Assembly: GCA_040399915.1 (NCBI GenBank)
Contig: JBBARE010000001.1
Span: forward strand, 44,100 to 68,099
Direction: 5' to 3'
Origin: Bacteriovoracaceae bacterium
GTDB lineage: Bacteria; Bdellovibrionota; Bacteriovoracia; Bacteriovoracales; Bacteriovoracaceae
Length of the DNA stretch: 24,000 bases
This document shows positions 5,716-22,509 of the stretch, in pieces. The notes under the pieces were generated by a model. The model worked only from the letters and a program-made list of their open reading frames with translations, ran no database searches and was not told the DNA's origin. Positions within the stretch are counted from its first letter, which is position 1; each line of letters opens with the position of its first letter. The position numbers and the translations under genes are program-made.

Positions 5716-6552
5716 CTATTTAAAGCTATTCCCTTTACTGTAGAAAGTAAAACCTCCGCGGGTAAATGAACTGAACGGAAACTCAATTTTTGAAATGGAA
5801 TCAGTAGAGCCAATAACCAATATGCCGTCTGCTTTCAAACAAGAGGCAAAATTCTGCAGGATGAGTCTTTTATTAGCATCAGAGAAGTAGATGAAAGCAT
5901 TACGACAAAATATTATATCATAGCGCTGAGAACTTTGAGGTACTCGAAGCAGAAGATTTTCAGTACGAAAATCACACATGCCTTTAATCTGAATTCCAAC
6001 AGAGTGAGCATCTTCTTTTTCTTTGAGAAAATAACGACTGAAATAACCGCGGGGAACATCTTTAAGCGAACGCCCAGAGTAGACACCTTTTTTCGCCTTA
6101 TCAATAACTGCACGATCTAGGTCTGTACCCAAAACTCGTATGGAAGGAAAAACATTTCTGTCGAGTAATTCATTCAGAATAATCGCCATGGTGTAAGCTT
6201 CTTCCCCACTTGAACAAGCAGCAGACCAGAAACTAAAGGTAACGTCCCCGTTTCTTCTTTTTTTATCTACAATTTCAGGTAAAAGTAATTCTGAAAAAGC
6301 TTGAAGCTGACGAAACTCACGAAAAAAATACGTTTCATGTATTAAAAAATTTTCTGCAATTTCGATTAGTTCTTTGGACGTTGGAGATGCTGTTAAGAAA
6401 TTAAGAAAATCATGCTCGTGCAAAAATCCCGCTTTTGACTGGATAGAGCCGAGGGTAGACATTTGGGACATGAGCTTATTTTCATCGCAACGAATGCCGT
6501 ATTGTTTTTCGATGAGTAACGAAAGAGAGCGAATGGTTTCTTTATGCCACAT
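5716..6552 (-). CDS. cheR: Chemotaxis protein methyltransferase CheR
   Basis: Motifs ETYFFREFRQL, FWSAACSSGEEAYTMAIIL, VLGTDLDRAVIDKAKKGVY and IFCRNAFIYF. The ATG overlaps the cheB stop by 11 nt. Confidence 0.9.
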   Translation of the reverse strand: MWHKETIRSLSLLIEKQYGIRCDENKLMSQMSTLGSIQSKAGFLHEHDFLNFLTASPTSKELIEIAENFLIHETYFFREFRQLQAFSELLLPEIVDKKRRNGDVTFSFWSAACSSGEEAYTMAIILNELLDRNVFPSIRVLGTDLDRAVIDKAKKGVYSGRSLKDVPRGYFSRYFLKEKEDAHSVGIQIKGMCDFRTENLLLRVPQSSQRYDIIFCRNAFIYFSDANKRLILQNFASCLKADGILVIGSTDSISKIEFPFSSFTRGGFTFYSKGNSFK

Positions 6553-7459
6553 CAGAATTTCCCTTTATCACTCTTGACCATTTATGGATAAAGTCAGGGA
6601 TATCTAGCAAGCTAATCTCATTTGAAGTCGCTCCCATTTCGAGAGCAGTCTTAGGCATCCCAAATACAAGGGCAGATTGTCGTGATTCAGCAAAAGTCGA
6701 CGCCTCTAGATCTCTGGATAGTTTTAGCGCAAGCGCCCCATCGCTTCCCATTCCTGTCAAAATACCTGCGAGAAGATTCTTCCGAAATGCCAACGCAATA
6801 GAATAGAGAGAGAGGTCAATGAGAGGCTTGTGAAGTGTTTCTGGTGTGGTTGTTTGAAAAAAAACGGGCTTATGATTCCTATCTACCCCAAAAAATGATT
6901 GAAAACCTGAGGGCAAAACATACCACTTTCCTGGATTTAAAGGCCCAAGATGAGAGGCTTCGCAAATCATTAATTTGTCCTTGCGAGATAGATGATCCAC
7001 TAACCCTTGGGTCTGACCAGCAGGCATATGTTGAGCTAATACATAAATTGTTTGAGAGTTTAGCTGTATTTTAGGGAGAATTTTTTCAAGTGCTGCAGGC
7101 CCACCTGTACTAAGGCCAAGGAAAACGATATTTTGACTCGGCGTCATCCGGTAAGTAGCGGTCTTAAAGAGATGCCAGTATTCAGGGATCTGCGAAAAAA
7201 TATAAGGAAGGACACCAAACTTCATATCCTCTAGACCTTGATGAACAGGAACATGAATAGTCTTATTAAAACCAGCCAATGCCATAGACTCATCTGCAAT
7301 TAAAATATTAAAAAAATTTTCGTCGAGTGCTTGAAATTTATTATCTGCTCGTATTTTTGCATAAACTCGAACGCCAGCAGATAAAAGGTTTGATTCAATC
7401 CAGCTTCGAAAGACGGGTGAACTTGAATGAATAAAAATACGGATGTTACTAGGCTGCAT
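6542..7459 (-). CDS. cheB: Chemotaxis methylesterase CheB with a degenerate N-terminal receiver-like domain
   Basis: The catalytic domain carries GLSTGGPAALEKILP (Ser), AQHMPAGQTQGL (His) and LTGMGSDGA (Asp). The N-terminal ~100 aa are receiver-like but have IFIHSSSP where the DD acidic pocket is expected. The maximal ORF extends to a GTG at 7507. I prefer the ATG at 7459 (MQPSNIRIFIH) because it gives an 11-nt overlap identical to three other junctions in this block. Confidence 0.85.
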   Translation of the reverse strand: MQPSNIRIFIHSSSPVFRSWIESNLLSAGVRVYAKIRADNKFQALDENFFNILIADESMALAGFNKTIHVPVHQGLEDMKFGVLPYIFSQIPEYWHLFKTATYRMTPSQNIVFLGLSTGGPAALEKILPKIQLNSQTIYVLAQHMPAGQTQGLVDHLSRKDKLMICEASHLGPLNPGKWYVLPSGFQSFFGVDRNHKPVFFQTTTPETLHKPLIDLSLYSIALAFRKNLLAGILTGMGSDGALALKLSRDLEASTFAESRQSALVFGMPKTALEMGATSNEISLLDIPDFIHKWSRVIKGNSDVA

Positions 7460-8339
7460 GCTTAACAAACCAGTCTGAGTTAATAAAAAAGATTGTTCTG
7501 TCTTCACTAATACGCAACATTTTATGAATCCACGATTTACCCATACCGCTAAAAGTATCAGACAATAATTCCAAGCCGCTTTGCGAGAATGGAGTGACTT
7601 CTGTCATAAGCTCTACACGGTAGCCTATTAACTGATCCTCACACTTCACTACAATAATCTTTGAGGTATCTTTCCCCCCATTAAGATCTAAGTTCTGAAT
7701 TCCGGCAATTTTTCTGAGATCAATAACGGGAAGAACAATTCCACGCAAGTTTATGACCCCTTCAATAACAGATTTTGTATCAGGTACGGAACGGGATTCT
7801 TTACCTCTGATAATTTCAACAGTTTCTTCAATCGAAAAAGCATACTCACAGTTGCCGAGCTTAAAACAAATCGCTCTAGACGATGGAGTTGCTTCTTTAA
7901 CTAATGCAGCCGTATCAGAATCTACATTTTTTTCAGTTACAGACTCATCAGAAAAGAGATGATCCAAATCCAATAAGTAAATCGGTGCTAAAAAATCAGG
8001 CAAACTAAAAATGCGCTGACAAAACTTCGGAGATCCGCTGCTTTGTCCATGCGGTTTCTGTTGAACAGAATCCGAGTCCACATCAAAAATTCGACTTACC
8101 GAAGAAGTTGATAAACCGAGCATGTTCCCTTGTCGCTCTAACAAAATTGTTTTTTTGACTGTTTCTGATGAAGGAGCTCCCATTAAGAAGCTTCCGGCAT
8201 CACAAACCTTAATAAATTTCCCTCTGATACACTCCACTTGCTCTGAAACTGAAAGGCCATCACGTCGTATGACTTCTCTTACGTCACTTAAGGATACGGC
8301 AAAGTTGGTATCCGAAGCTTTAAATATAATAACTTTCAT
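7449..8339 (-). CDS. cheW: Double CheW-domain coupling protein
   Basis: There are two CheW-like modules. The N-terminal one is divergent (KVIIFKASDTNFAVSLSDVREVIR). The C-terminal one is canonical (ICFKLGNCEYAFSIEETVEIIR...VINLRGIVLPVIDLRKI...IIVVKCEDQLIGYRVELMTEV). The ATG at 8339 is preceded by GAGG at 5-nt spacing. The ORF track starts 2 codons earlier at a GTG (8345). Confidence 0.85.
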   Translation of the reverse strand: MKVIIFKASDTNFAVSLSDVREVIRRDGLSVSEQVECIRGKFIKVCDAGSFLMGAPSSETVKKTILLERQGNMLGLSTSSVSRIFDVDSDSVQQKPHGQSSGSPKFCQRIFSLPDFLAPIYLLDLDHLFSDESVTEKNVDSDTAALVKEATPSSRAICFKLGNCEYAFSIEETVEIIRGKESRSVPDTKSVIEGVINLRGIVLPVIDLRKIAGIQNLDLNGGKDTSKIIVVKCEDQLIGYRVELMTEVTPFSQSGLELLSDTFSGMGKSWIHKMLRISEDRTIFFINSDWFVKHAA

Positions 8340-8348
8340 AGGCACCTC

Positions 8349-10265
8349 TTACATGTATCCAAATTCTTTAACCATCGAAGACACCTGCTCAACCTGGAGA
8401 CTTAAATCTTGAGTTGAGGTTGACTGGCGTTTAGCAATTTCTGCAGACGACTTAGCACTCTCAGAAATGATTCCGGCAGCACGACTTACTTCCTCAACAA
8501 TAACAGATCCGTTTTTACAAGATTGTTCAGACTCAACTGCTTTTGAGACCATTTCATTTGCAAGTTCAGTAAATGATTTAGCGCAATCGATGAGGTTTTG
8601 CATTTGAACAACAGATTCTTCTGCTCTAATGAAATCACGCTGAGCAGATTGATTCACGCGACTGATGTAATTCTGAACAAGGATTGTTTTTTCGTAAATT
8701 TTATCTAGAAGATCTTCAATAAGATCTGAATTAGAAGAAGTATCTGATGCTAGCGAGCGAATATCGCCTGCCACAACAGAAAATCCCTTCCCTGACTCAT
8801 TTGCCCTTGCCGCTTCTACACCACCACTAACTGATAGCATATTAGTCATAAGGGCGTTTTCACGAATAGAGCGTATGAACTTTTGAATTTTTGATACAGA
8901 AGATTTTAATTCCGATGCGTTGTCCTGAGATTGGCGCGAGGAATTTGCTGTTTTTGAAAGACTTTGTTGGATTCCAACAATAATTTCTGTCAGTTTCTGA
9001 AAAGTTTGCTCAATTGAATGCCCTGAAGCTTTAAAACTTTCAGCACTCTTAAGAATTGATTCAATTTTTGCCCGAGCATCCTGAATGACGATAAGAGATG
9101 AATCAGCTTGTTCAGACTGAGAGCTTGCACCTTCAGCAATTAGACTAATGGCCGCTGCAACTTCCTGAGCAGAAGCATTTGTTTCCTGAACAGTTGCTGT
9201 GAGCTGCTGGGAAGAAGAAGCGAGCATATCTAAGTATTCGGAGCTGTTGTTTAACAAATACTTTCTTGATTTGTCGCTAAGAAGCTTGGAAGATTCCATA
9301 ATGTCAGTCATGGCAACAAATTGTTCTTCACAACTTGCGAGAGCTTCAGCTCCAGAAGAAGAAGTTTGTGCTGTTGCCGCTGCAACTGAATCTACACGTT
9401 GTTTAAACGATAAAGCGTCTCGAGTGACGTCTTCAGTATCTCTTGCCATCTTACCGGCTTCAGTTGAAACCAGCTTAATGACTTCAGAAATTTCACCCAA
9501 ATGATTAATGACGACTTTAACATTTTCAATATCCGTTTTAGCTGATTCAGCACCACTATTTGAAAGAGACATGATAAGTTGAACATGTCCATGAATAGAA
9601 GAAATTGTTTCTGTGACAAGACAAGCACTCTTTTCAGCAATTTCTGCAAGATTTCTTACCTCATCCGCCACAACTGCAAATCCTAAACCCTCGCTCCCAG
9701 CGCGTGCAGCCTCGATTGCAGCATTTAATGCAAGAAGATTCGTTTGTTCAGCAATGTCTGCCACCGCTGTAATAACAGAACTAATTTCTTTTGAAGATTG
9801 CTGAAGTTCAAGCACTAAGCGACTAGTTTCAAGACACACGCCCCCTGCATCTTCAACAGAATGTTTCCAACCACTGACACCACGAAAAAACTCTTGGATT
9901 TGCGATTGTAAAAGTCCTGCTTTGTTGTGAGCAGTCTGAGAATGGTCATTAAGATTCTTAGAGTTATTTAGAATCAAGTCACCTATTCGAATAGATTTAT
10001 CAACTAGAGATCTGACGATATTACTTTGGTCGTTGACTTCAGACATGGTCACTTTTAGTTCCTGAGCAGAGTCTGAAATGCTTTCAGAAGTCGAGGCGAG
10101 ATCTTCAGTCAAAAGATTTAATCGCTCAGCAGCTTGCTGCTTAAGCCATTTCTTACGCTCTGAGATTCTACTCCCAGTATCATTGGCACTATTGACGACC
10201 TCAAGAATTTGGCGTTTTTGGGGGGAAGGCGAATCAATTTTTGTAGGTTGCTCTAATTTCTTCAT
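8349..10265 (-). CDS. Soluble (no TM segment) methyl-accepting chemotaxis protein with two tandem signalling-hairpin modules
   Basis: Canonical tip [38 protein letters not shown] (aa ~170-208) plus a second, divergent tip [39 protein letters not shown] (aa ~469-507). Heptad-spaced methylation-consensus matches ATVQETNA and ASAQEVAA are present. The N-terminus is hydrophilic. ATGA overlap with the cheA stop. Confidence 0.9.
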
Positions 10266-11950
10266 GCGCTTTTCTCCTTGAGCGTGAGTTCGAGATTATC
10301 TCGATCGTTTATTTTTTCTGTAATAAGTTTTTTTAAATCTAGAAATGGAACAGGTGTACCGTCTCCGATAATGGACATACCGAGCATACCAGGTGCGGTA
10401 CTCATCCAACGGCCTACTGGTTTGACCATGTGCTGCCCTTTAGAGCCGACATGATCAACTGGGATGCAGAAGTAACTGTTATTAACATTAACGATGATCC
10501 CAGTCGCTTTTTCGGAAACGATGAGATTATCAAGATTTGTATCAAGAGGAATAAATTGATGAGAAACTCCGGCCATCTGATAAACGATTAGATCAGGAAC
10601 TGGAGTTCGAATTTTCTTACGATCGATATTTATTACTCGAGTCACACCATTGATTGATACAAGATATGATTTTCCGTTGTGTTTTATAGAGAGAGCTTCC
10701 GAAAGACCATTGCACAACGGAATTTGTAAATTAAACTGAGTCCCAAAATTAATTTCCGTATGAATTCGTAATGAACCACCTAATGATTCAATATTTGTCC
10801 GAACAACATCTAAACCAACACCTCTGCCTGAAAACTCAGAAACCTGTTCTGCGGTTGAAAATCCAGGTGCAAATAAAAGCTCTAACACTTTGCCTTCAGA
10901 CCAGACATCTGCTTCGGCGCCAACGATGCCTTTTTCTTTTGCTTTTGCGAGAATTTTTTTTCCATCAATTCCACGCCCATCATCTTTGATGGTTATTTCA
11001 ACGACTGTTGGTTCAACATTAATGTGAATAGATAAATTTCCAGTTTCAGTTTTTCCTCTTCCTAATCTTTCTGACGGAGTTTCTAACCCATGATCAAGAG
11101 AGTTACGTACCATGTGAACGAGTGGATCTACTAAGGCATCTAAAATGGGTTTTTCAACGTAGTCAGTATTTGATGTGAAATTAAATAAAATTTTCTTATT
11201 TAACTTGTGGGCGGTATCTCTCACGACTCTGGAAACTCGTTGTTTAAGGGGATCAAGAGAACTTTTTTTCATATCAAGGACACGTTCGTTTAGTTCACGG
11301 ATATTTTTGTCCATAAGGCCAACAACGATTTGAAGTTGACGAGGCTCAAAAATATTTGAAAGAAGCTGTGCTCTGAGAGTTGCAAGCTCTCCAACAACTT
11401 GTTGAATATTATTAACCCGATCTAATGGAACCTTTAGTACTTGTTGATTGGGTTGTCCGACTTTCCTAGGCCCTGCTTGCTCTGGTTCTTCATGGTTAGT
11501 TTCTGATGCTGGACTTGCCTCAACAACATTCTTTTGGATTGCCATTTCAGCTTCAACGATTGAAACTTCTGCATTAATACGCTCGATCATTTTTTCAACT
11601 GCTACTTTGTCAATATCTTGCTTTGATGCAACAAAATTGAAGCAGTTTTTTAGAAGATCAGTTGTCTCAAGCATGAGACCGTTACGTTCCTTTGAATTAA
11701 GGTCAGGCCTTTGTCTTAAATAAGTTAAAAGATTTTCAAATTTATGTGCAAAGCCTGAGATATATTCAAGACCAACTGCTGCTGAAGACCCCTTTAAATT
11801 ATGGGCCACCCGGAAAGCTTCATTCAGAGCATCCACAGAACCAGGATTCTCATCTAAAATGAGGAATTTCTTTTCCATCGATTCAATCAGCTCAAGCGCC
11901 TCTTGAACGAAAATCTGCATAATTTCAAAAAGTTCGTCATCATTTTCCAC
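10262..11950 (-). CDS. cheA: Chemotaxis histidine kinase CheA (P1-P3-P4-P5; no recognisable P2)
   Basis: Hpt motif [16 protein letters not shown], dimerisation region [22 protein letters not shown]-box [17 protein letters not shown]1 DDGRGID, F-box [12 protein letters not shown]2 GRGVGLDVV, and a C-terminal CheW-like domain. Only about 40 aa of linker lies between P1 and P3. GTG start at 11950 ([20 protein letters not shown] fits typical CheA N-termini). Confidence 0.9.
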
Positions 11951-13232
11951 AGTGATCCTTTGAACACATCAACTGCTGTGTCTCAAAAAAATGAGATAAA
12001 TCTTTTCCGCGTGAATTTTCTAGTAAATTCTCTGTTCGGTCATCAACGACAATTTCATAAAGAGAACAGGTCAAACCAGAGAACTGGTAGAGACGTTCAA
12101 TCGCGCAATCTTTTTTTGTTAGACTAAGATTAAATTCAACAAACACAAAAACTTGAAGTCCATTTTGAGTCGGTTTTATAGAGACATTAAGTGCATTGAT
12201 ATCTTTTAAAAGATTTTCTTCCAGGGTTTTAAGATTTATCCATTGTCCAGACGAGGATTTAATCTTCTCTGATGCGCGACAAATGACATCAATCCTTCCA
12301 TCATCGGTTTCTACGCATAAGTCATTTGTTGGTTGCCAATCACACGGAGTTTTAAGGTCATCACCAAGACTCCAACTTTCTGATTTCACAAAAAGCTCAC
12401 CGTCTTTGATTTTAACTTCGCATCCGATCGCGCGACCATTTAATAAAACACCAGGCCCAGCTTCAGTTAAGCCGTAACCTTCATAAACTTTCCCTTCTTT
12501 AATCCAGTCCTTGCAACGTTCAGCGAGAGAGTGATTTAACCTAGCACCACCAATAAAAATTGAATCAGGTGCTCGAGGAGTTTGACGATTATTATAAAGA
12601 ATAAGCTCTAATTGTCTTGGAACCAAAGAAAGGTGCTGAATATTGTATGTATCAAGCATCGTCGTCATCCACTTGCGAGAACCTCGTAATTTTTGATCAG
12701 CTGGGCAGTAAACGACAGACTTTGAATAAAGACCAAGAACAAGATCAAGAACAAGCCCAAATGCATGGCCCCAAGGAAGTATAGCAAGTCGTTCAGTCTC
12801 AGATTGGTAACTAAAAAACTCACTATGATTTTTTAGCTGGAGAAGAATTCCTTGCCGAGTATAGTACCGAGTCTTAGGTTCACCAGTTGACCCAGAAGTT
12901 TTAAGTTCAAGTAGGATGTCTTTATTTCGGAGAGCGTGAGAGTTTGTTGATTGAAGAATACCTCTTGGTTTTGAGTCATCTGGTACAAAGACGTAGTGCC
13001 CGATAATAGACGCAAAAAAGTCTATGATAAATTCTTTACCAAATGAAGGAGAGGAGATTCTATCACCAGGGCGCGCCCCTAGCCTTTTTAATTCCGTTGA
13101 GCGTTCAAAAGCGAGCGACCAAATATTTGGTCCTGATAATACCTCTGAAACTTTACCAAACTCATCGCACCATGCAACAGATGGATGTTGTAGATCGCAA
13201 AGTATATTTCGAAAAGTGCGACTAAGATCCAT
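11940..13232 (-). CDS. pcl: Short adenylate-forming acyl-CoA ligase, probable p-coumaroyl-CoA ligase (pCL) for PYP chromophore activation
   Basis: AMP-binding motifs LKTSGSTGEPK and YEGYGLTEAGPG, and a TND..DDGRIDVICRASEKIK region (TGD-like). Its ATG overlaps the upstream lyase stop by 11 nt, and it is in one block with pyp. Confidence 0.75.
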   Translation of the reverse strand: MDLSRTFRNILCDLQHPSVAWCDEFGKVSEVLSGPNIWSLAFERSTELKRLGARPGDRISSPSFGKEFIIDFFASIIGHYVFVPDDSKPRGILQSTNSHALRNKDILLELKTSGSTGEPKTRYYTRQGILLQLKNHSEFFSYQSETERLAILPWGHAFGLVLDLVLGLYSKSVVYCPADQKLRGSRKWMTTMLDTYNIQHLSLVPRQLELILYNNRQTPRAPDSIFIGGARLNHSLAERCKDWIKEGKVYEGYGLTEAGPGVLLNGRAIGCEVKIKDGELFVKSESWSLGDDLKTPCDWQPTNDLCVETDDGRIDVICRASEKIKSSSGQWINLKTLEENLLKDINALNVSIKPTQNGLQVFVFVEFNLSLTKKDCAIERLYQFSGLTCSLYEIVVDDRTENLLENSRGKDLSHFFETQQLMCSKDHCGK

Positions 13233-14586
13233 AGGAATTCCAAGATTTTAAGTGGAGTTGTGGACTTACTTCTTCTCCGCGTCGGAGCGAAAACGCTCTA
13301 TCGAAGACGAAACTTGTTGCTCGAATCATCTCTCGAGCAATTTCCATTTGTTGAGAAAGACTATTAAGAGCTGCCATCCCACAGGGAACGATGTCTTGAT
13401 TGTTACCTTCACATGAGAAACTTAGCATGCGAGAAGGTACCTGATGCGATTTGAGTTGCTGCAGGAGTGAAGACATTAACTGATGAATGCCCTTCAAGTG
13501 TGATTCGCCTTGAAGTTCTAAATTTCTTGGCAAACCATTATTAAGATCAGGCGACATAAATATTAGCACTTGCCGATCAAGCATCTCACAAATACGAAAT
13601 ACTCCATCAGCGATAAGGTCAGCTGCCTGAGCAATTGGAAGCGCATAAAAATGGCCACCATGCCAGATCTCATTTTCAAGCACAACTGGGTTATCAGCAA
13701 TTCTTAGAGCTTCAAGTTCAATCCGTTCACCTGCTTGCTTAAAGCTCCAGAGAGCACTACCAAGAACATTTGGCGAGCAACGGATAGAGTATCTTGCTTG
13801 TTCTTCACCAGCACCTTGGATTGAAGTTGCAGTTTCCGATTTCTCAAAATCAGAGATAATATCAACCATTCGTTTTGCTACATAGGAAACATTTGTGCAC
13901 TGATGAGGAAGATCAATTCCAGAAGATGTAAAGTGACGAACACCGTATCCTGAAGCGTAACTCCCAATAGAAGCTAATCGAATGGCATCATAAAGGAAAT
14001 TATTGGCCTGTGAGAAAAGTTCAATCCCAAAACTTGCCATTACGGAATTTGTATTAACTAAAGTAAGGACATCCCTTGGACCCTGTACATCGTCTTTTTG
14101 ATTAAAAAGGGGAGCGACAGCATGTGCCATAGTGACCAAATCACCACTGGCACCGAGACTTCCATAACAAGGAACCTGGGGCATTGATTCGGATTCACAA
14201 AGTTCAATAAGCCGCTTAAAAGTTTCAGGATGAATACCTGAAAATCCAAGCGAACTTTTATACGCCTGAAGCTTTAGTGCACGACGAACAACCGATTCGG
14301 GTAGTGTCTTACCGACTCCAACTTGCAAATATTTTAAAAGAGCAAACTGATGTTCTTTCCAATCATTACTTGCAGAGGCTTTTACATCTGATCCAAACCC
14401 AGTGTGTAGACCATAAATTTTTCTATCGCTATTATTCGTATAGTTAAGAAGACGTTGATACGATTCAGAAACTCCTCGCTCGCTTCCCGCCGGTAAAGAG
14501 AATGAAGCTCTATTTCCCCAGGCAACAAGGTCTAGAAGATCAGGCGCAACTTTAGATGTTTTTATTTGAGTGTATTTTTCTATCAT
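13222..14586 (-). CDS. tal: MIO-dependent aromatic amino-acid ammonia-lyase, probable tyrosine ammonia-lyase (TAL)
   Basis: HAL/PAL/TAL family motifs YGLHTGFG and GSLGASGDL (the Ala-Ser-Gly MIO triad is encoded at 14143-14151). The substrate-switch position reads Tyr-Leu (LLKYLQVGVG), closer to PAL/TAL [F/H]-L than to HAL S-H. It is adjacent to pcl and near pyp. Confidence 0.8.
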   Translation of the reverse strand: MIEKYTQIKTSKVAPDLLDLVAWGNRASFSLPAGSERGVSESYQRLLNYTNNSDRKIYGLHTGFGSDVKASASNDWKEHQFALLKYLQVGVGKTLPESVVRRALKLQAYKSSLGFSGIHPETFKRLIELCESESMPQVPCYGSLGASGDLVTMAHAVAPLFNQKDDVQGPRDVLTLVNTNSVMASFGIELFSQANNFLYDAIRLASIGSYASGYGVRHFTSSGIDLPHQCTNVSYVAKRMVDIISDFEKSETATSIQGAGEEQARYSIRCSPNVLGSALWSFKQAGERIELEALRIADNPVVLENEIWHGGHFYALPIAQAADLIADGVFRICEMLDRQVLIFMSPDLNNGLPRNLELQGESHLKGIHQLMSSLLQQLKSHQVPSRMLSFSCEGNNQDIVPCGMAALNSLSQQMEIAREMIRATSFVFDRAFSLRRGEEVSPQLHLKSWNSYGS

Positions 14587-16001
14587 GATGCACCCTTTAA
14601 GTTATGAACATCAATTATATTGATCAGGCTATCGCCTCCGATAACGACTCCCAGGCAACTTTTACTTTCTTTGATTCCTATGCCCGGCTTAAGGGAGCCA
14701 CGAACGATTCCTACAACTTCCTCAACTTCAATGACAAACTGCCCTGCGCCCACATCATCAATCACAACGTATGAAGATTTAGAAGTTGTTGCTTGAGCAC
14801 CAAATCCAGTAGATTCTTTTAAAGAAATCAATGGAAGATTTTGAGACGAATTTATAGATGCGAGTCTTTTGATTTTATCCAGCTCAATGACTGAAACATT
14901 TTTTTCAATGCGGACAACATAGTTTGTAGAAATTCCAAAAAGCTGAAACTTATCATTTTGAGCTTGTCTCACGACCAGATATTCATGAAGACTGCGAAGA
15001 TCGCAGTGAAAAACCAAAGAACTCGACGAGTCAACCTTTGAAGTCTCTATCAAAACACCCAAGTGGGCAAAGCGTTTTAAATCAAGCTCTACCGGTGTAC
15101 TTGAGTCAGAATCCTCAATGAATTCGAAACGGAGTCGTCCCTTTTCGCGCTTTACTGACCAAGAAATGTTGACATGAGATTCATTAAAAGCATGTCGACT
15201 CTTAGCATTTTTTTCGCGAATTGAAAAAATACACTTCATCCATTCCTCAGCTATTGTTCGGAACGCAGTTGCAACTTCAGGTGCAATTCTTATGTTCTGA
15301 TCACAGTCGCCAATATTTAGAACTGCACGGGTGTTTGATTTTCGTAGCCACGGAGTTAATAGAACGAGAAGGTTTTCATTCAAATCTTTTACGTTTAACC
15401 AAACAGACTGAGCATAAATTTCAGCTACTTTAAGGATAGTATGATCCATTTTTTTAATTAAATCTGGATTGCGGATAACAATATCGTCGCGGGATTGAAA
15501 AAGGGATTCGTTAGTCAACTGCGAACATTTATCAAAGGATTCAACAAGATCGTAAAAACGATTAGCTAATGATGTTCTGTATTTTATCGATTCAACAGGC
15601 TCACTTGCAATTTTGTAAACCCAGAAAAGATCTTCCGAATTAATAAAGGTTTCAATGACACCAAGAATATAGGAGAGGCAGGCACCCTTTGCCATGAGAA
15701 AGGGTTTTGCCTCCCCTAATGAAAATGTTTGGTATTGCATTTGATTGTTGTATCGGTTCCACTCGAGTCGAATTTCAAGCCAAAGAGAAGGGAGAGAGCC
15801 GTGAGCTTCAGAGTCATCATCGTCGATACGGAGATCGTTGATACTTGAAGAAATTCCTTCAATTGTATCATTGTAAAACTTATGGATTAATTCCACTTCG
15901 TCTTGCTTTAGAGTATCGAGCCCTTCAACCATTTGATCGAATAAAGCACGTGTATCGCTGCTCTGTAATGTTTCAACTATTTCATTCGTTCTGAAGTTCA
16001 C
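14583..16001 (-). CDS. Hypothetical protein with a C-terminal CheW-like domain preceded by a degenerate CheA P4-like (pseudo-kinase) region; N-terminal ~210 aa unassigned
   Basis: The C-terminus YLVVRQAQNDKFQLFGISTNYVVRIEK...YVVIDDVGAGQFVIEVEEVVGIVRG...CLGVVIGGDSLINIIDVHNL resembles CheW/P5. The preceding AVLNIGDCDQNIRIAPEVATAFRTIAEEWMKCIF...GRLRFEFIEDSDS follows the CheA P4 layout but lacks N-box and G-box residues. GTG start at 16001 with GGGGAG 7 nt upstream. ATGA overlap with tal. Confidence 0.55.
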   Translation of the reverse strand: MNFRTNEIVETLQSSDTRALFDQMVEGLDTLKQDEVELIHKFYNDTIEGISSSINDLRIDDDDSEAHGSLPSLWLEIRLEWNRYNNQMQYQTFSLGEAKPFLMAKGACLSYILGVIETFINSEDLFWVYKIASEPVESIKYRTSLANRFYDLVESFDKCSQLTNESLFQSRDDIVIRNPDLIKKMDHTILKVAEIYAQSVWLNVKDLNENLLVLLTPWLRKSNTRAVLNIGDCDQNIRIAPEVATAFRTIAEEWMKCIFSIREKNAKSRHAFNESHVNISWSVKREKGRLRFEFIEDSDSSTPVELDLKRFAHLGVLIETSKVDSSSSLVFHCDLRSLHEYLVVRQAQNDKFQLFGISTNYVVRIEKNVSVIELDKIKRLASINSSQNLPLISLKESTGFGAQATTSKSSYVVIDDVGAGQFVIEVEEVVGIVRGSLKPGIGIKESKSCLGVVIGGDSLINIIDVHNLKGAS

Positions 16002-16011
16002 AATGGCTCCC

Positions 16012-16416
16012 CTATCCTACGTTTGGCATCCTACCGACAATTGCAGCCTCAAAAAGAGCAGATCCAAGCTCGCGAGCACGCTTTTGCATCTCTATACGCT
16101 CTTCACCACTTTTCGCAACTTTGTGCTCTAAATCCATCTTTTCATCAATGAGTGATTTTACCTGGTCCTCAAGACTAGTGATCATTTCTGTCACTTCAGA
16201 TGATCCAGATGATCCGGTTGAAGCAGTCGGGAAATTCTTTTCCTGGTAAATCGAATTTAATTGTTCTTCAAAGCTTGCTACAGCTTCGCGCAATTCATGA
16301 ATTTCTGATTCGTTACCGTCTGACTGCTTTTCATCGTACATGGCAATCAATTGATTCTCCATGCTCTGGAGAGATTCGCGCAAACTTTCAACAGTATCAC
16401 GATTGTTATTAAACAT
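16012..16416 (-). CDS. Small acidic coiled-coil protein with a three-fold internal repeat (unknown function)
   Basis: 134 aa from the ATG at 16416 (MFNNNRDT...). An AGGAG lies 7 nt upstream of this ATG and overlaps the pyp TAG stop. The repeats are ESLRESLQSMENQLIAMYDEK, ELREAVASFEEQLNSIYQEK and EMITSLEDQVKSLIDEK. The longer ORF-track start (16479) would overlap pyp by 53 nt and is unlikely. Confidence 0.65.
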   Translation of the reverse strand: MFNNNRDTVESLRESLQSMENQLIAMYDEKQSDGNESEIHELREAVASFEEQLNSIYQEKNFPTASTGSSGSSEVTEMITSLEDQVKSLIDEKMDLEHKVAKSGEERIEMQKRARELGSALFEAAIVGRMPNVG

Positions 16417-16426
16417 AGTAAATCTC

Positions 16427-16801
16427 CTAAGCAGCTTTTTTCTGAACGAAAACCCAGTTTGTTTTTGTACTCTTATCATGCAAAAGATGAATCTGAACGT
16501 TTGTCGGCCTCATTTTATAAGTGAAGGTATAATTGAAAGCAGAATTCAGATCTCCCATTTCAATACCAGACTTAAATTTTCCAAAAAAAAGTTTATTGTT
16601 CGTACAAGGAGCCACTTCTGTAAAAAAGTTTTTACCTTCTGCCGTTACTGCAGCAACACCTGCAAGTTCAGATTCATAACGATTATAAAGTAAAATTTTT
16701 CCATTATTATCTACTTTTACAATCCCGTAAGGAACATTATCCACCTCCCCGCGCGTGAGTGAACCAAGTTTAGAAAGGATGTCTGGCGTAACAAAACTCA
16801 T
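16427..16801 (-). CDS. pyp: Photoactive yellow protein (PYP), single-domain PAS blue-light photoreceptor
   Basis: It aligns along its whole length with Halorhodospira halophila PYP recalled from memory. [51 protein letters not shown] matches [61 protein letters not shown] matches ILQYNAAEGD, and the C-terminal NWVFVQKK matches YWVFVKRV. The chromophore Cys is encoded at 16604-16606. The ATG at 16801 has GGGAGA 7 nt upstream and gives 124 aa. The ORF-track start at 16822 adds 7 residues. Confidence 0.92.
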   Translation of the reverse strand: [124 protein letters not shown]

Positions 16802-16836
16802 ATCAATATCTCCCGTTTTCATGACTCGTCATTGAG

Positions 16837-17913
16837 TCAAGCTGCAATTTTAAATTCGTCTGATTGTTTTTTCTCTAATACGACACAAAGGCGTATGACA
16901 GTTTTCATGACTTTATCAAAAGCTAAGCTTTCTTCATTTTCTGATTGATTCTCCAGAAGATTTTCAAGCTTAAGACCTACATCGATCAATTTTTGTGCTT
17001 GTGTATGAAATTCTTCATCTGTCGTTGCCATCAAAATCCCGACTCGCAATTCTCTAAGGGTATTAGAAACCTCGGAGAACTCACTTGAAAAAGCACTACG
17101 AACTTCTCTTTCTTTAACAAGAAATTCGATTCCACTTGAGAATTCTTTTACCCATTCTTCGTAATCAAAACTATTAAGGAACGATGCATTTGTTAATTGT
17201 GCCTCTTTGAATACAGAGATTTCCTTAACCTGATGCTTTTTTCCAAGGAGATAAGCGACAGTTAAAAAAATGAAAACAAGAGCAACAGAGGGAAAGATTG
17301 GTAGCCTGGATTCTCTTTGCTCGCCTGCTGGAGAACGATCGCCCTTTGAAAGTTCTGCTCGTGCCTTTGAGACAAGTTCTTTGAGCTGATCAATTTGCTG
17401 TTTATCTAAACTAACAATAAAATTTGGATTTTGTTGATACCATCTGATTGACCAAAGAGAAGAAAGATCATCAATTGATTTTGTTAAAGCACCAGACTTC
17501 AATGGTTTTCTTGATTGATTAAAAAAGTTTTGATCACGAAGATCAAGAATACTTAAAAGTAATTTCTTGAAAGAAGACCACTCTTTAACAGATTCATCAA
17601 GCCCATAAAAAAGAGCTTCGTTTTCGAGTTGTTCCCAATCAGTTCGCAAACTCGACGTCAAAGAAGTTGACCGTAAAGATGCTGGCACTTCAGACGCAGG
17701 AATACCTGAGGGGTCATGCGCAATTGTAAAATAAAGCTTTTCTTCAAATTTTTTAAGTGACTGCCATTTAACAAGAGGGACTATTTTTTTCTGGTGATTT
17801 GAACTTAAGCTCAATTCAACTAAGCGAAGCGCTTCAGCTAGTTTTTCATTTGCTCCAAGAGAGTAACTCGCAGTAGAGCAAAAAATTAAAACAGTTAAAA
17901 TTATTTTGAGCAT
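16837..17913 (-). CDS. Membrane protein with receptor-like topology (N-terminal signal/TM1, ~180-aa periplasmic region, TM at aa ~204-224, ~130-aa helical cytoplasmic tail); function unknown
   Basis: N-terminus MLKIILTVLIFCSTASYSLGA, and a hydrophobic segment LPIFPSVALVFIFLTVAYLLG followed by KKHQ (positive-inside). Strong RBS GGGAGGA 5 nt upstream of the ATG at 17913. It is the first gene after a 337-nt AT-rich gap, and its stop is 35 nt from the preferred pyp start. Confidence 0.7.
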   Translation of the reverse strand: MLKIILTVLIFCSTASYSLGANEKLAEALRLVELSLSSNHQKKIVPLVKWQSLKKFEEKLYFTIAHDPSGIPASEVPASLRSTSLTSSLRTDWEQLENEALFYGLDESVKEWSSFKKLLLSILDLRDQNFFNQSRKPLKSGALTKSIDDLSSLWSIRWYQQNPNFIVSLDKQQIDQLKELVSKARAELSKGDRSPAGEQRESRLPIFPSVALVFIFLTVAYLLGKKHQVKEISVFKEAQLTNASFLNSFDYEEWVKEFSSGIEFLVKEREVRSAFSSEFSEVSNTLRELRVGILMATTDEEFHTQAQKLIDVGLKLENLLENQSENEESLAFDKVMKTVIRLCVVLEKKQSDEFKIAA

Positions 17914-18250: not shown

Positions 18251-20347
18251 TTATTTAACTTTAAGACAAACACCAAAATAGCCTGGACCCTTATCAATCC
18301 GCCCTTCTGCCTCAAGAGGAATCATCGCCATTGGTCCTGAACCTGAGGAGAGAGGAATTTTAATAGTCTCACTTATCAATTCAGTTAATTTTTTATCGAT
18401 CGTGCTTTTCACGATACCGCTGAAGAAACTACTTTCTTTAAGTGCGTAGCGAGCAGTACCAGGAACAACGTTCCAATGAGCATTTCCATTTTCAAGACAG
18501 AAAGCACTGTCGTCACAGATGTTAGGAGTGAATCCAATTTCAAAATTAATATCACCGGCAATTTTACCTTGTCCAAGCGCAACTGCTCCACGAAAACATT
18601 CTTTTGTCTTAAAATCGACTTTATAGCCTCCAGACGTCTGATCAAATTTTAATTGGGGAGCACCATTTAAAAAGCAGCGCATTCCACCTTGGCTTTCTTC
18701 AATCGAAAATGAACAGCCATTTCCACGCGGAGACCCGTCTCCATTACGAATGATTTCATTTTTATTGTTTGTTTCTGGAATGAAGTCGCCCTTACCGCTA
18801 TGACAAAGTCTGCCGGATTTATACATCTCAGTCATGAGCGAGTTTATTTCATTTAAATCGACATAAGTCTGAATGGGGCAATTAGGAATGCTTTTCCTCT
18901 CGTGAGGAGACGGATTATCTATATCACATAATTCAGGAATACTTATCCTAAAACCTGCAGTTGATCCGTTTCCAAGATTTGTCATCAGGAGAACGTTGTT
19001 AAAGAGACCTGACTCGAGCTGCTTGTCTGCAATTTTCTTGTTGATAGGTTGAAGTTTTGATTCAAAAATTGATCCGAGATTCAAAGCTGTCATCCGCTCT
19101 TCAAAACTTGCTACTCTCTTTCTAATATCTTCAGACGTCACCTGATCATAGCGCACCATCTGATCCTCAATCATTTTGGCAGCATCTGCAGGTCGTGGAA
19201 TATCTTTAAGAAGTAGTGTTTTTTTCTTAAATGGGTAAAGCTGGTTTAAACACTTATGTTCAACAGGAATTGTTTTTTTCTCTTGTTTTAGAATTGAGCA
19301 ATCCATCAGGTCGACATATTTTTTCACGGCCATGTTTCCAACGCCCATTTCTGAAAGAAAAGAATTAGTGGGTACAGAAATTTGAGTAGGTTCTTTTTTA
19401 TCGAGTTCCGTAATCATGGTCGAAACCTGAAGCTGGAAAGTTTTCGCAAGAGATGCCTGAACAGCATCCTCCATGGTTGGTCTGAAATATCTGGCAAGGG
19501 GTGGAATCGCCGTTAATTTCAAAATACTTTGAGTGGCAGGAGAATAACCTGACAGTCCTCTTATATTTGAACCAGCAAGAGCTTCGTTAATCATACCGTC
19601 TGAAACGAAGTTTCCATTTTTTCTTTCAATCAAAATTTCTGATAACGGTTCTGCAGAAGTGAGATTGAGTTTCGCATTCATGCAAACTTCGCGCTTACCA
19701 TCAAGTTTGATATTGATGTTATCCATTCCCATACGTTCATACTCAAGGTTTTCTTCCTTACTGAACTCAACATCAACCCCAACGCTAATCTCCAACGCTA
19801 AAATATCAAAACAAGCTTTAAGCACTCCATCAGCTGCTGAAACACTCAAAGGCTTCATATCAAGCTTTTTAATGCCAACTGGTTTAGGGAAGTGAATCAT
19901 AGACGGGCGGGCAAGACTTTTAGGACCACATTTTTCCATTCCCTGGCTTCCCATGATTAGTGAACACGGCAGAGTTGTACAAATTTCTGTCTTCACTTCC
20001 ATGCTTGTGTCCGGACTCGCACAGATTCGTGGATCTTCACAATTAATGGCTTTAAACTTTGGATCTCCCTGCGCTTTTTCTTTTTTACAAATAATGATAT
20101 TGGGCGGGAATCCAACTGATTCCATGGAATAATCAGTTAGAACTTTTGCTTTGAAGCCGTCCGAATTAAAAAGAGCCGTGAGTGATGGTACAAGGGCATC
20201 ATGCAGTTTTGGAGAGCTTGATGAAGCAGTTTTCAGTGCTTCACCTTCAACTTCCATGCGCATAAGTTGCGACCGACAATTACAATCAATTTGTGCGTTG
20301 GTATTTGTGATAACAAATAAGAGAAGAAGCGAAGTCCATGTTCTCAT
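18251..20347 (-). CDS. Secreted cysteine-rich protein of unknown function (paralog B)
   Basis: Signal peptide MRTWTSLLLLFVITNTNAQ. It is collinear with the upstream paralog, for example IPELCDIDNPSPHERKSIPNCPIQTYVDLNEINSLMTEMYKSGRLC versus LPELCSDKPSPHAGKKIKNCPVQVYADLNEFNKVLKKMFDTGRLC, with C-terminal GPGYFGVCL versus GPGYFGACL. ATGA overlap with the upstream gene. Confidence 0.8.
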   Translation of the reverse strand: MRTWTSLLLLFVITNTNAQIDCNCRSQLMRMEVEGEALKTASSSSPKLHDALVPSLTALFNSDGFKAKVLTDYSMESVGFPPNIIICKKEKAQGDPKFKAINCEDPRICASPDTSMEVKTEICTTLPCSLIMGSQGMEKCGPKSLARPSMIHFPKPVGIKKLDMKPLSVSAADGVLKACFDILALEISVGVDVEFSKEENLEYERMGMDNINIKLDGKREVCMNAKLNLTSAEPLSEILIERKNGNFVSDGMINEALAGSNIRGLSGYSPATQSILKLTAIPPLARYFRPTMEDAVQASLAKTFQLQVSTMITELDKKEPTQISVPTNSFLSEMGVGNMAVKKYVDLMDCSILKQEKKTIPVEHKCLNQLYPFKKKTLLLKDIPRPADAAKMIEDQMVRYDQVTSEDIRKRVASFEERMTALNLGSIFESKLQPINKKIADKQLESGLFNNVLLMTNLGNGSTAGFRISIPELCDIDNPSPHERKSIPNCPIQTYVDLNEINSLMTEMYKSGRLCHSGKGDFIPETNNKNEIIRNGDGSPRGNGCSFSIEESQGGMRCFLNGAPQLKFDQTSGGYKVDFKTKECFRGAVALGQGKIAGDINFEIGFTPNICDDSAFCLENGNAHWNVVPGTARYALKESSFFSGIVKSTIDKKLTELISETIKIPLSSGSGPMAMIPLEAEGRIDKGPGYFGVCLKVK

Positions 20348-22509
20348 TGGCCTGACGCCTCTTTCGGAATTTCAAGACAAGCACCAAAATAACCCGGCCC
20401 ACTATCCACGCGCCCCTCCGCTTGCAGTGGGATATTCGCCATAGGCCCCACTCCCTGTGCCATCGGAAGACGGATGGTATTTTTCATGGAACCTGTAATC
20501 GCTTCATTTAACTTCTTAGTAATTAAACCTTTAAAGAAACTAGAATCAGAAAGTCCAAAGCGCTCAGTTCCAGGCACGACGCTCCATTTAATGTCCGGAT
20601 TCTCCATGCAGAAGTCACCATTACTGCAAGCCTTGGGTTGGAAGGCAAAATCAATATTGAAATCACCACCGAATTTACCAATTCCAAAAATAACCGGACC
20701 ACGGAAACATCCCTGAAGGCCTAGATTGAAGCCGTATTTTTTAGTTTTTGTATCGTATTTAATCTGAGGCGGTGCTTTCATGTGGCAACCCATGCCCTCA
20801 ACCTCAACGTAGCACCCACCGTTTGCCAGAGGTTTTCCTTTTTGATCGTAAGCTGGTTTTCCGAAAGCATCTAGTTTCGGGTCATACTCCCCTTCACCTT
20901 TCATACACAAGCGACCTGTATCAAACATTTTCTTTAACACTTTATTAAATTCATTTAAGTCAGCATAAACTTGTACCGGACAATTTTTTATTTTCTTTCC
21001 AGCGTGGGGTGAAGGTTTATCTGAACATAATTCCGGGAGACTGAGACCAATACTATTGGAAGTACCTTGATTTAACTGGCCTTGAATTTCCATAAAATCA
21101 TAGAGCTGATTTTCTAATTGATTATTTGCAATGGCGTCGATTAAAGGATTCATTTCTTCGTCAATTTTCCGTTGTGCAGCTTCAGTGTGCCACAGCTGGA
21201 TTTCTGCAATTTCTTCTTCGTTTCTTCCCTGTGTAAAAAAGCTACTCGGTTTTTCTGCGAGGATAACTTCTTTTAAAGCAATCAAGCGTTGCTTGATACT
21301 TTCAGAAGTAATTTTTTTTCCTTTCGCCATACTGAGGAAATAATCTAACTCTATGCCAGAGCCATCAAGCTCTGGAGTCACGACTCCTGAGAAATGAGGA
21401 AGACCCAGGCAAGGATGTTTAGGTGGAATCTCGCGTTTTGCCATTTTAATCTGAGAACACTCAGCTTTAGCGAGCTGATCTTTTACTTGCATGTTCACTA
21501 AACCTAATTCACTCATCATGTTGCGTGAATCAACAATAGTCGTTAAATTACTGGCAGCAATAGGTGCTACCGTTTTCTTAATAAGATCAGTAAAAACAGT
21601 ACTTAAACTATCTTTCAAACTTGTTTCAATTGAATCACGTAGTGGATGAAATAAGACTGGAATCAACTCGGCTTGAATCTGCGCCAGCTGATCCTGTGGA
21701 TAACCGCTTAAGCCCTGGATTTGGAGTTTTTTCGCTGCTTCCCTGATCATGCTATCAGAAATAAAGGGACCACTGCCTTGGGGAGTAAGCTTGATATTTG
21801 TGACCGGATCAATGCTTCCAATATTAATACTAGCACTCACGCAAAGTTCTCTAGGGCCCTCGAGCACAGGATTAATATTATTAATATCAATTGATTTATC
21901 AGGAAGTGATGTCTTTCTCGTATCCAGAGATAAACTCGTGCTCATCTTGATATCAAGTTCATTGATCCGAAAGCAAAGATTAGCCACTCCGTTTCTAAAA
22001 TCGACCTTCGTTGGAGTCATCCCCATTTTTTTTATTTCCAGCGGAGTTGGAAATGAAATTCCATTCGGATAAATATCTTTAGTCTCATTGCATTTACCGG
22101 GATTTAAAGTTCCCTCAAGAATCGGACAAGGAAGCTTGAAGCAAATTTTTTCTCTCACTTCAGCATCAAGATCCGATTCTGAGCAAAGACCAGGCTTGTG
22201 ACAATCAAGATTTTTGAACTTCTCATCACCTTCAGCTTTTTCACGTAAACAAGTTTCAAGTGTTTGCGGAAACCCGATGGGAATTAAAGGATAAGTTTTT
22301 TGAAGCAATGAAGTTAAAGCGGGTGACTCAGATAGATTTTTTAAAGCTGGTAAAAGTCCCTGCGCATTTCCTGAACTCAAAACATTAGCGGCAATTTCAA
22401 GACGCAAAAGTTGTGAAGCACATTTTGTCGCACAATCATTCTCGGCTTCGGCAAAGGATAAAAAACTAAATAAGAGAAGACCTACAACAAGCCAAATATG
22501 AGGAACCAT
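20344..22509 (-). CDS. Secreted cysteine-rich protein of unknown function (paralog A)
   Basis: Signal peptide MVPHIWLVVGLLLFSFLSFAEA. It has about 20 Cys, largely aligned with those of paralog B. Shared motifs include GLSGY, CFRG, GDFNI/GDINF, W.VVPGT.R and GPMA.IPL.AEGR.D.GPGYFG.CL. Confidence 0.8.
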   Translation of the reverse strand: MVPHIWLVVGLLLFSFLSFAEAENDCATKCASQLLRLEIAANVLSSGNAQGLLPALKNLSESPALTSLLQKTYPLIPIGFPQTLETCLREKAEGDEKFKNLDCHKPGLCSESDLDAEVREKICFKLPCPILEGTLNPGKCNETKDIYPNGISFPTPLEIKKMGMTPTKVDFRNGVANLCFRINELDIKMSTSLSLDTRKTSLPDKSIDINNINPVLEGPRELCVSASINIGSIDPVTNIKLTPQGSGPFISDSMIREAAKKLQIQGLSGYPQDQLAQIQAELIPVLFHPLRDSIETSLKDSLSTVFTDLIKKTVAPIAASNLTTIVDSRNMMSELGLVNMQVKDQLAKAECSQIKMAKREIPPKHPCLGLPHFSGVVTPELDGSGIELDYFLSMAKGKKITSESIKQRLIALKEVILAEKPSSFFTQGRNEEEIAEIQLWHTEAAQRKIDEEMNPLIDAIANNQLENQLYDFMEIQGQLNQGTSNSIGLSLPELCSDKPSPHAGKKIKNCPVQVYADLNEFNKVLKKMFDTGRLCMKGEGEYDPKLDAFGKPAYDQKGKPLANGGCYVEVEGMGCHMKAPPQIKYDTKTKKYGFNLGLQGCFRGPVIFGIGKFGGDFNIDFAFQPKACSNGDFCMENPDIKWSVVPGTERFGLSDSSFFKGLITKKLNEAITGSMKNTIRLPMAQGVGPMANIPLQAEGRVDSGPGYFGACLEIPKEASGQ

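Follow-up and report, generated by a model that had tools for sequence, protein, structure and literature searches.

A sensor-less, double-hairpin chemoreceptor of the DosM type encoded in one gene run with a photoactive yellow protein module in a Bacteriovoracaceae bacterium

The stretch of DNA analysed here (the window) covers 24,000 nucleotides (nt) of contig JBBARE010000001.1 from a Bacteriovoracaceae bacterium (assembly GCA_040399915.1). It carries an open reading frame (ORF) at 8349..10265, on the minus strand like all features given below, that encodes a soluble chemoreceptor of 638 amino acids (aa) with two methyl-accepting chemotaxis protein (MCP) signalling domains and no transmembrane segment. 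Judged by its sequence, this receptor belongs to the published DosM family. Its architecture is real and has already been described, and is not the oddity for which it was taken in the original prediction, a note made from the DNA letters alone. We favour the explanation that an ancient duplication in tandem of one whole long MCP hairpin (heptad class 42H-44H) gave rise to the gene, that no sensor or membrane domain is present, and that the receptor would act as a DosM-type spanning scaffold, tying two baseplates together in a two-layered membrane-free array; we put the probability of this explanation as a whole at roughly 0.7. Taken alone, the double-tip receptor is one more divergent member of the DosM family, and the unusual part is its genomic context, a module centred on photoactive yellow protein (PYP).

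The chain can be divided into a disordered N-terminus (about aa 1-29), a first hairpin (about aa 30-339), a hinge, and a second hairpin (about aa 342-637). Tip 1, at aa 171-208 (9642..9755), carries the canonical MCP tip motif in 38 residues, and tip 2, at aa 469-507 (8745..8861), is a family-conserved variant of 39 residues. Two copies of the conserved tip had been predicted, with coordinates correct to about 20 nt, together with the lack of a hydrophobic segment. The latter was confirmed, because the Kyte-Doolittle mean over 19 residues reaches a maximum of only 1.04 along the receptor, which leaves no segment able to span a membrane. The Pfam MCPsignal profile, whose curated cut-off is 34.6 bits, matched three stretches of the whole receptor. 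When the halves were scanned alone, aa 1-341 scored 105.6 bits (expectation value (E) 3.4e-30, match at aa 146-295) and aa 342-638 scored 71.6 bits (E 9.2e-20, match at about aa 447-581). Since each half passes the profile on its own, the receptor contains, as had been anticipated, two significant signalling domains and not just one. Scans with Pfam and NCBIfam detected no significant domain besides MCPsignal in the receptor, and in particular no sensor domain.

The duplication extends beyond the tips. In an alignment of 106 family sequences, the hydropathy of position p correlates with that of position p+299 at r = 0.87, every other offset gives 0.51 or less, and secondary peaks stand at ±7 residues. 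Because the hydropathy register is thus equivalent over about 300 residues at an offset of 299, the receptor is a tandem repeat of a complete signalling hairpin of about 300 residues. The distance from tip to tip is 300 aa in 93 of the 106 family members and 299 aa in seven. The sole gap between the tips lies after aa 339, where the clade of the window receptor (hereafter the window clade) has one residue fewer, reading ‘LLN-NSS’ where the family has the polar ‘LKxSTDxxKS’. Because this missing residue sits exactly at the midpoint, the junction is a hinge or break that tolerates insertions and deletions (indels), rather than a continuous helix. In the window, this midpoint hinge corresponds to LNNSS at about aa 338-342 (9240..9254).

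A trivial origin of the double architecture, either two neighbouring MCP genes joined erroneously through assembly or a frameshift, or generic coiled coil making up the second region, was a possibility only before the data were seen, and it could appeal to the two copies being merely 31% identical over 94 aa. We now give it practically no credence. The identical 638-aa sequence is present on an independent Logan contig, the architecture is found in more than 100 representatives, and the spacing of 300 aa is fixed, all of which rules out a fusion or assembly artefact. Generic coiled coil in the second half is ruled out by its 71.6 bits on MCPsignal alone and by the many invariant columns of tip 2.

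The DosM of Vibrio cholerae, from chemosensory cluster I/F9, was reportedly the subject of Briegel et al. 2016 in PNAS. According to a review, this protein (VC1403) is a receptor with a double signalling domain that is required for the cytoplasmic array of cluster I/F9, and electron cryotomography (cryo-ET) showed it to be an elongated rod bearing one signalling domain per end, docked in two CheA/CheW baseplates (PMC7534058). In a survey of 2,781 species, full F9 clusters were found in 64, with DosM and a triple CheW as signature proteins, and 98% of DosM homologues had no sensor domain, so that F9 arrays need other inputs (PMC9321776). We placed the window receptor in this family via listed DosM homologues and not by alignment with the VC1403 sequence. 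The cluster representative P0094 matches the window receptor with an E of 3.7e-38 at 82% coverage and about 28% identity, and it shares a 90%-identity cluster with WP_013175898.1, which is the DosM of Syntrophothermus lipocalidus in S6 Table of the survey (PMC9321776). It is this clustering of P0094 with a published DosM that assigns the window receptor to the family. Like VC1403, the window receptor is soluble, lacks a sensor domain, has two tandem MCP signalling domains and falls in the long-hairpin class (VC1403 is listed as heptad class 44H, and the arms of the window receptor measure 146-159 aa). It shares sequence family, tip spacing and the variant second tip with the DosM homologues of S6 Table, and differs from them in the one-residue hinge deletion of its clade, the absence of the methylation motifs from the N-terminal arm of hairpin 1, and a more divergent tip 2.

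The double-domain architecture is common. An exhaustive profile search covered 1.84 billion cluster representatives (50% identity), and we looked at the best 150, the last of which still had an E of 1e-92; by our count, 109 of these 150 share the architecture, their alignments covering the double-domain profile of 648 positions from one end to the other. PF00015 is the sole Pfam domain in about 100 relatives that are full-length and measure 640-670 aa. The nearest relatives outside the window clade are only about 30% identical to the window receptor, which makes this clade an outlier in the family. Some longer representatives of the DosM family were also seen (P0313, P0315, P0316 and P0320, of 744-747 aa; P0344, of 1051 aa; P0359, of 1174 aa). 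In some of them the profile matched in two stretches with roughly 100 additional residues, and large extensions occur in some; these may be rare DosM variants with extra, perhaps sensor, domains. A locus of Vibrio mimicus (L024) was ruled out as a source of DosM, as it carries an MCP with PAS and transmembrane segments.

Conservation was compared between the two tips. In both copies, 37 tip positions reach a conservation of at least 85%; 26 of them hold the same residue and 11 a copy-specific substitution (V/I, I/V, L/M, L/V, A/G, A/S, D/G, E/D, V/I, S/N and R/D), mostly conservative. Almost all columns of tip 1 are invariant in 65 relatives, and tip 2 has many invariant columns in the family alignment and a 32-residue family consensus. 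In these alignments both tips bear the mark of strong purifying selection. The view of tip 2 as degenerate must therefore be replaced by that of a variant motif conserved family-wide, from which the window clade strays further (LSVSG and ARANE, against LAVNG and ARAGE in the family). The related suggestion that tip 2 is specialised for a partner other than CheA and CheW found no evidence, and CheA/CheW layers are bound at each of the two ends in the archetype.

The methylation-type consensus [ASTG]xx[EQ][EQ]xx[ASTG] has five matches in the receptor, against 1.8 expected from shuffled sequences (p about 0.04). Three of them, starting at aa 311, 350 and 357 (9174..9335), are kept in 59, 63 and 59 of the 65 relatives, respectively, and the matches at aa 364 and 382 are not conserved among these relatives. 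The motifs ATVQETNA (aa 357-364), ASAQEVAA (aa 364-371) and SQSEQADS (aa 382-389) had been predicted and lie where they were said to lie; only the first of them is conserved in the family, and the conserved sites at aa 311 and 350 had been overlooked. The conserved motifs lie on the two sides of the hinge, where both hairpins have their tip-distal ends, the region in which long-class MCPs are methylated. In hairpin 1, the window clade lacks the methylation motifs that the family has on the N-terminal arm.

From its homology to V. cholerae DosM, the receptor would dimerise, with its two hairpins, joined by the short polar hinge at about aa 340, pointing in opposite directions. Each tip would dock in a CheA/CheW lattice, so that two baseplates would be tied together and a two-layered membrane-free array scaffolded. 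These baseplates would here be built from the adjacent CheA and a two-domain CheW, and CheR and CheB would adapt the array via the conserved Glu/Gln pairs beside the hinge. As DosM itself senses nothing, other proteins would have to supply the input; the PYP module of the same operon is the obvious candidate in this lineage, and would make the assembly a blue-light-responsive cytoplasmic array. We observed the architecture of domains, the membership of the family, the conservation and the context of the gene; the extended spanning conformation, the formation of an array and the light input are inferred.

Several points weigh against this scaffold. The AlphaFold2 monomer seems to be folded on itself, its two tips lying together at one end, and not extended. 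The tip-to-tip distance, if fully extended, would measure about 44 nm against a spacing of 35 nm between the V. cholerae baseplates, so that some kink or overlap would be needed. The adjacent CheW has two domains and not the canonical three, the window has no CheY, and its CheB has no detectable receiver domain. The evidence for the extended rod is second-hand, from a review, and the family was assigned by way of listed homologues rather than the VC1403 sequence or F-class models.

The AlphaFold2 monomer, predicted from the 65-sequence alignment, reached a mean predicted local distance difference test score (pLDDT) of 87.9 and a predicted TM-score (pTM) of 0.59. Model numbering is protein numbering minus 1. 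Helices span model residues 29-187, 189-338, 341-486 and 492-636, with breaks at both tips and a two-residue break midway, at model residues 339-340 as assigned by DSSP, where the pLDDT dips to 75. The geometry of the monomer was inferred by comparing Foldseek root-mean-square deviation (rmsd) values with a simulation of idealised geometries. For one hairpin together with about 100-125 preceding residues (9a65_B, 421 columns), the observed value was 62 Å, against 65-107 Å for a folded-back chain and 0-21 Å for an extended one. Whole MCP chains (9a65_A and 8c5v_I) gave 111-123 Å, with 138-181 Å for the folded-back and 42-69 Å for the extended geometry, and a folded cohesin elbow (7ogt_A, 723 columns) gave 17.2 Å, with 14.7 Å and 142 Å, respectively. 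All three observations are much nearer the folded-back set, the first two lying slightly under its range. The predicted monomer is thus very probably a bundle formed by a single chain running up-down-up-down, in which the two tips share one end.

Taken alone, a hairpin of the model agrees well with solved MCP hairpins; in the Foldseek comparison, it aligned with 2ch7_A, a 44H receptor, at 6.1 Å across 302 columns. A phmmer alignment with TM1143 needs about seven extra residues in TM1143, and gapless alignment to solved 44H receptors is ambiguous. The repeat unit of the receptor measures 299-300 aa, and we place its heptad class no more narrowly than 42H-44H.

This model bears directly on the single-chain pseudo-dimer that had originally been proposed. 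The chain would fold at the hinge at about aa 340, hairpin 1 would pack on hairpin 2 in an up-down-up-down bundle, and this bundle would mimic an MCP homodimer, its two non-identical tips standing side by side and entering one baseplate like an ordinary dimer. Such a closed form fits the confident monomer prediction, with its two-residue helix break exactly at the midpoint, and the rmsd values, far nearer the folded-back than the extended geometry. It also fits the nature of the hinge, which is polar, resembles a helix N-cap and tolerates indels, and the matched lengths of the arms H2 (150 aa) and H3 (146 aa). According to the model, the folded-back bundle is sterically feasible. However, the predicted fold says little about the cellular state, because nothing prevents a prediction of one chain from making the contacts of an MCP dimer intramolecularly; the fold is then the expected default and not independent evidence, and the folded-back geometry is itself inferred from rmsd values. 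The cryo-ET of the archetype, reported as a rod across both baseplates, also runs counter to it. A comparison of charges at equivalent positions of hairpins 1 and 2 gave no signal of complementarity, with 17 same-sign and 2 opposite-sign conserved pairs and a charge correlation of r = +0.48. The intramolecular four-helix bundle is therefore feasible, and apparently what AlphaFold2 builds from a single chain, but we consider it an unlikely description of the working receptor.

The tip-to-tip distance of 300 residues corresponds to about 44 nm when fully extended. The V. cholerae baseplates are 35 nm apart, and those in sandwiches formed by 36H Tar fragments are 31 nm apart, with the opposed layers overlapping. 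By analogy with the latter, a spacing of 35 nm would also suit two overlapping layers of 22 nm, as expected for the pseudo-dimer. This arithmetic does not decide between the extended and the folded-back states.

A domain-swapped antiparallel dimer would have the interface between hairpin 1 and hairpin 2 form between two chains opened at the hinge. The result would be an extended rod, each end of which carries one copy of tip 1 and one of tip 2, and equivalent baseplates; this is one possible pairing mode of the spanning rod and takes no separate share of probability. It would reconcile the folded-back interface of the AlphaFold2 model with the extended rod of cryo-ET, and it would explain both the strict conservation of two distinct tips and the flexible break at the hinge. 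The charges again give no sign of complementarity between the hairpins, and the data are equally explained by a parallel homodimer, which has paired copies of tip 1 at one end and of tip 2 at the opposite end. We hold the swapped arrangement to be quite improbable. The confident monomer model, apparently folded back at a conserved hinge that tolerates indels, raises the question of how DosM pairs, whether parallel, domain-swapped or closed, and the published low-resolution tomography may not settle it.

The genes around the receptor are those of a chemotaxis cluster, and from 17913 down to 5716 all genes lie on one strand, overlapping or at most about 15 nt apart. CheA, with Hpt, HATPase_c and a CheW-like P5 domain (10262..11950), overlaps the start codon of the receptor by 4 nt. 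Directly downstream of the receptor lies a two-domain CheW (CheW-CheW) of 298 aa (7449..8345), matched by Pfam CheW in two stretches with 122.4 bits. It is followed by the methylesterase CheB (6542..7507), with its methylesterase domain at aa 128-306, and by the methyltransferase CheR (5716..6552). In the N-terminal region of CheB, of about 120 aa, neither Pfam nor NCBIfam detected a receiver domain. No match to Response_reg, and hence no CheY, was seen among the scanned proteins from the large ORFs of the window. In a relative of the receptor that is 86% identical (locus L084), a gene for a 131-aa receiver follows cheR.

The order in the window, CheA-DosM-CheW2-CheB-CheR, contains the published F9 core DosM-W-B-R, and another relative (L001) has the order DosM-CheW2-CheB-CheR-CheA. 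The canonical F9 order is given as [DosM W3 B. R Y A], in a table that also has W1 and W4 variants beside DosM (PMC9321776). The two-domain CheW of the window holds the position of CheW3 in this order, and the triple CheW that marks F9 is absent there, the CheW next to the receptor having two CheW stretches. As for VC1403, the receptor gene stands directly upstream of a multi-domain CheW, followed by CheB and CheR, with CheA in the same cluster. In contrast to the VC1403 system, the CheW has two domains and not three, the window lacks CheY, the CheB has no detectable receiver, and the cluster is fused to a module with pyp and two enzyme genes. We accordingly describe the system as F9-like rather than as a proven F9 member. 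A distant relative of the receptor in Heliomicrobium adjoins a CheW of 490 aa and a CheB.

The pyp module lies upstream in the same tightly packed gene run (11940..17913). Its pyp gene (16427..16822) encodes a protein that aligns over its full length with PYP of H. halophila (E 6e-30), with Tyr42, Glu46 and Cys69 aligned, and that scores 123 bits on TIGR02373, under the cut-off of 143 bits. It is a bona fide single-domain PYP. Its true start probably lies seven codons downstream, because relatives are 124 aa long. Among named PYPs, those of Bacteriovorax (78%), Bdellovibrio and Leptospira are the closest; a Bacteriovorax-like source is therefore probable, and the GC content of the window, about 40%, agrees with it. 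Directly upstream of pyp, a protein of 358 aa (16837..17913) had no match in Pfam or NCBIfam; a gene for 357-397 aa occupies the same place in the loci L001, L084 and L086. Directly downstream of pyp lies a small coiled-coil repeat protein of about 130 aa with repeated LExQLxSxYxEK motifs (16012..16479), whose real start is probably later than listed, since the listed ORF overlaps pyp by 53 nt. The remaining genes of the module encode a cryptic CheA-like protein of 472 aa (14583..16001), an aromatic ammonia-lyase resembling tyrosine ammonia-lyase (TAL; 13222..14586) and an AMP-ligase resembling coumarate-CoA ligase (pCL; 11940..13232).

The arrangement of pyp with che genes recurs in the DosM relatives of L084, L001 (65%) and L089 (89%), the contig of the last ending before pyp. 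All four of the closest relatives looked at retain this layout for as far as their contigs reach. Among the loci outside the window clade, L086, L087 and L088, no linkage of pyp with DosM was found: a metagenome-assembled genome of Bacteriovorax has the pyp module with no che genes nearby (L086), the module is paired with a histidine kinase and a response regulator in L087, and pyp stands beside a single-domain MCP in Leptospira (L088). Homologues of the coiled-coil repeat protein adjoin pyp both in a locus linked to a histidine kinase (E 2e-22) and in Leptospira (E 3e-8).

The 472-aa protein gave a marginal Pfam CheW match of 25.4 bits, no NCBIfam match and no BLAST similarity to the CheA of the window. 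Its AlphaFold2 model has a pLDDT of 66 overall and of about 80 over residues 200-360, and the top eight PDB matches to this model are all structures of CheA P3-P4-P5, with E from 1.2e-11 to 1e-6 over 264-409 columns; the relationship to CheA was seen by this fold search only. Homologues with 26% identity (E 3e-47 and 1e-53) flank pyp and TAL in L086 and L087, loci without che genes. These homologues carry DDGxGK, which resembles a G1 box, and because EDSDSS replaces it in the window copy, the latter may be a pseudokinase. We regard the 472-aa protein as a candidate signalling partner of PYP and coupler to the array.

A link between PYP and chemoreceptors has been described in Leptospira, where PYP is encoded next to sensor-less chemoreceptors and a relay model like that of CetA/CetB was put forward (Xing, Gumerov and Zhulin 2022, PMC9664959). 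The two cases are alike in that a single-domain PYP beside a sensor-less MCP suggests input from PYP, and they also share the small repeat protein. In Leptospira, however, the MCPs are described as transmembrane, single-domain proteins without a che operon, whereas the DosM of the window is soluble, has two domains and comes with a CheA, CheW2, CheB and CheR of its own. A 2025 survey reported a link of MCPs with PYP solely in the form of 12 fusion proteins, and no MCP appeared in its table of 113 predicted pyp operons (PMC12826048). These fusions likewise tie PYP genetically to the chemotaxis machinery, with PYP at the C-terminus of the MCP, unlike the separate gene in a che operon seen here. 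We came across no publication in which pyp is joined to a cluster of the DosM/F9 type.

We tentatively propose, as a possibility that we would not call likely, that the DosM-scaffolded membrane-free array is wired to PYP. Blue light would be fed in via two partners conserved along with PYP, the repeat protein and the CheA-like P3-P4-P5 protein, and the latter could insert in the CheA/CheW2 baseplate by its P5-like domain. If true, a single-domain PYP would be connected with a kinase along a genetically defined path, and an F9-type array, a kind for which no inputs are otherwise known, would gain a natural sensory input. The operon context thus bears on what F9 arrays sense, given that DosM has no sensor, and on how a single-domain PYP relays its signal. 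To our knowledge, the partner of single-domain PYP has been unknown for decades. The compact operon brings together PYP, the enzymes for its chromophore, the CheA-like protein and a complete set of DosM, CheA, CheW, CheB and CheR, and so names the components to consider.

Upstream of the pyp module, two large adjacent ORFs of 698 and 721 aa (18251..22509) matched no Pfam family at E <= 0.001.

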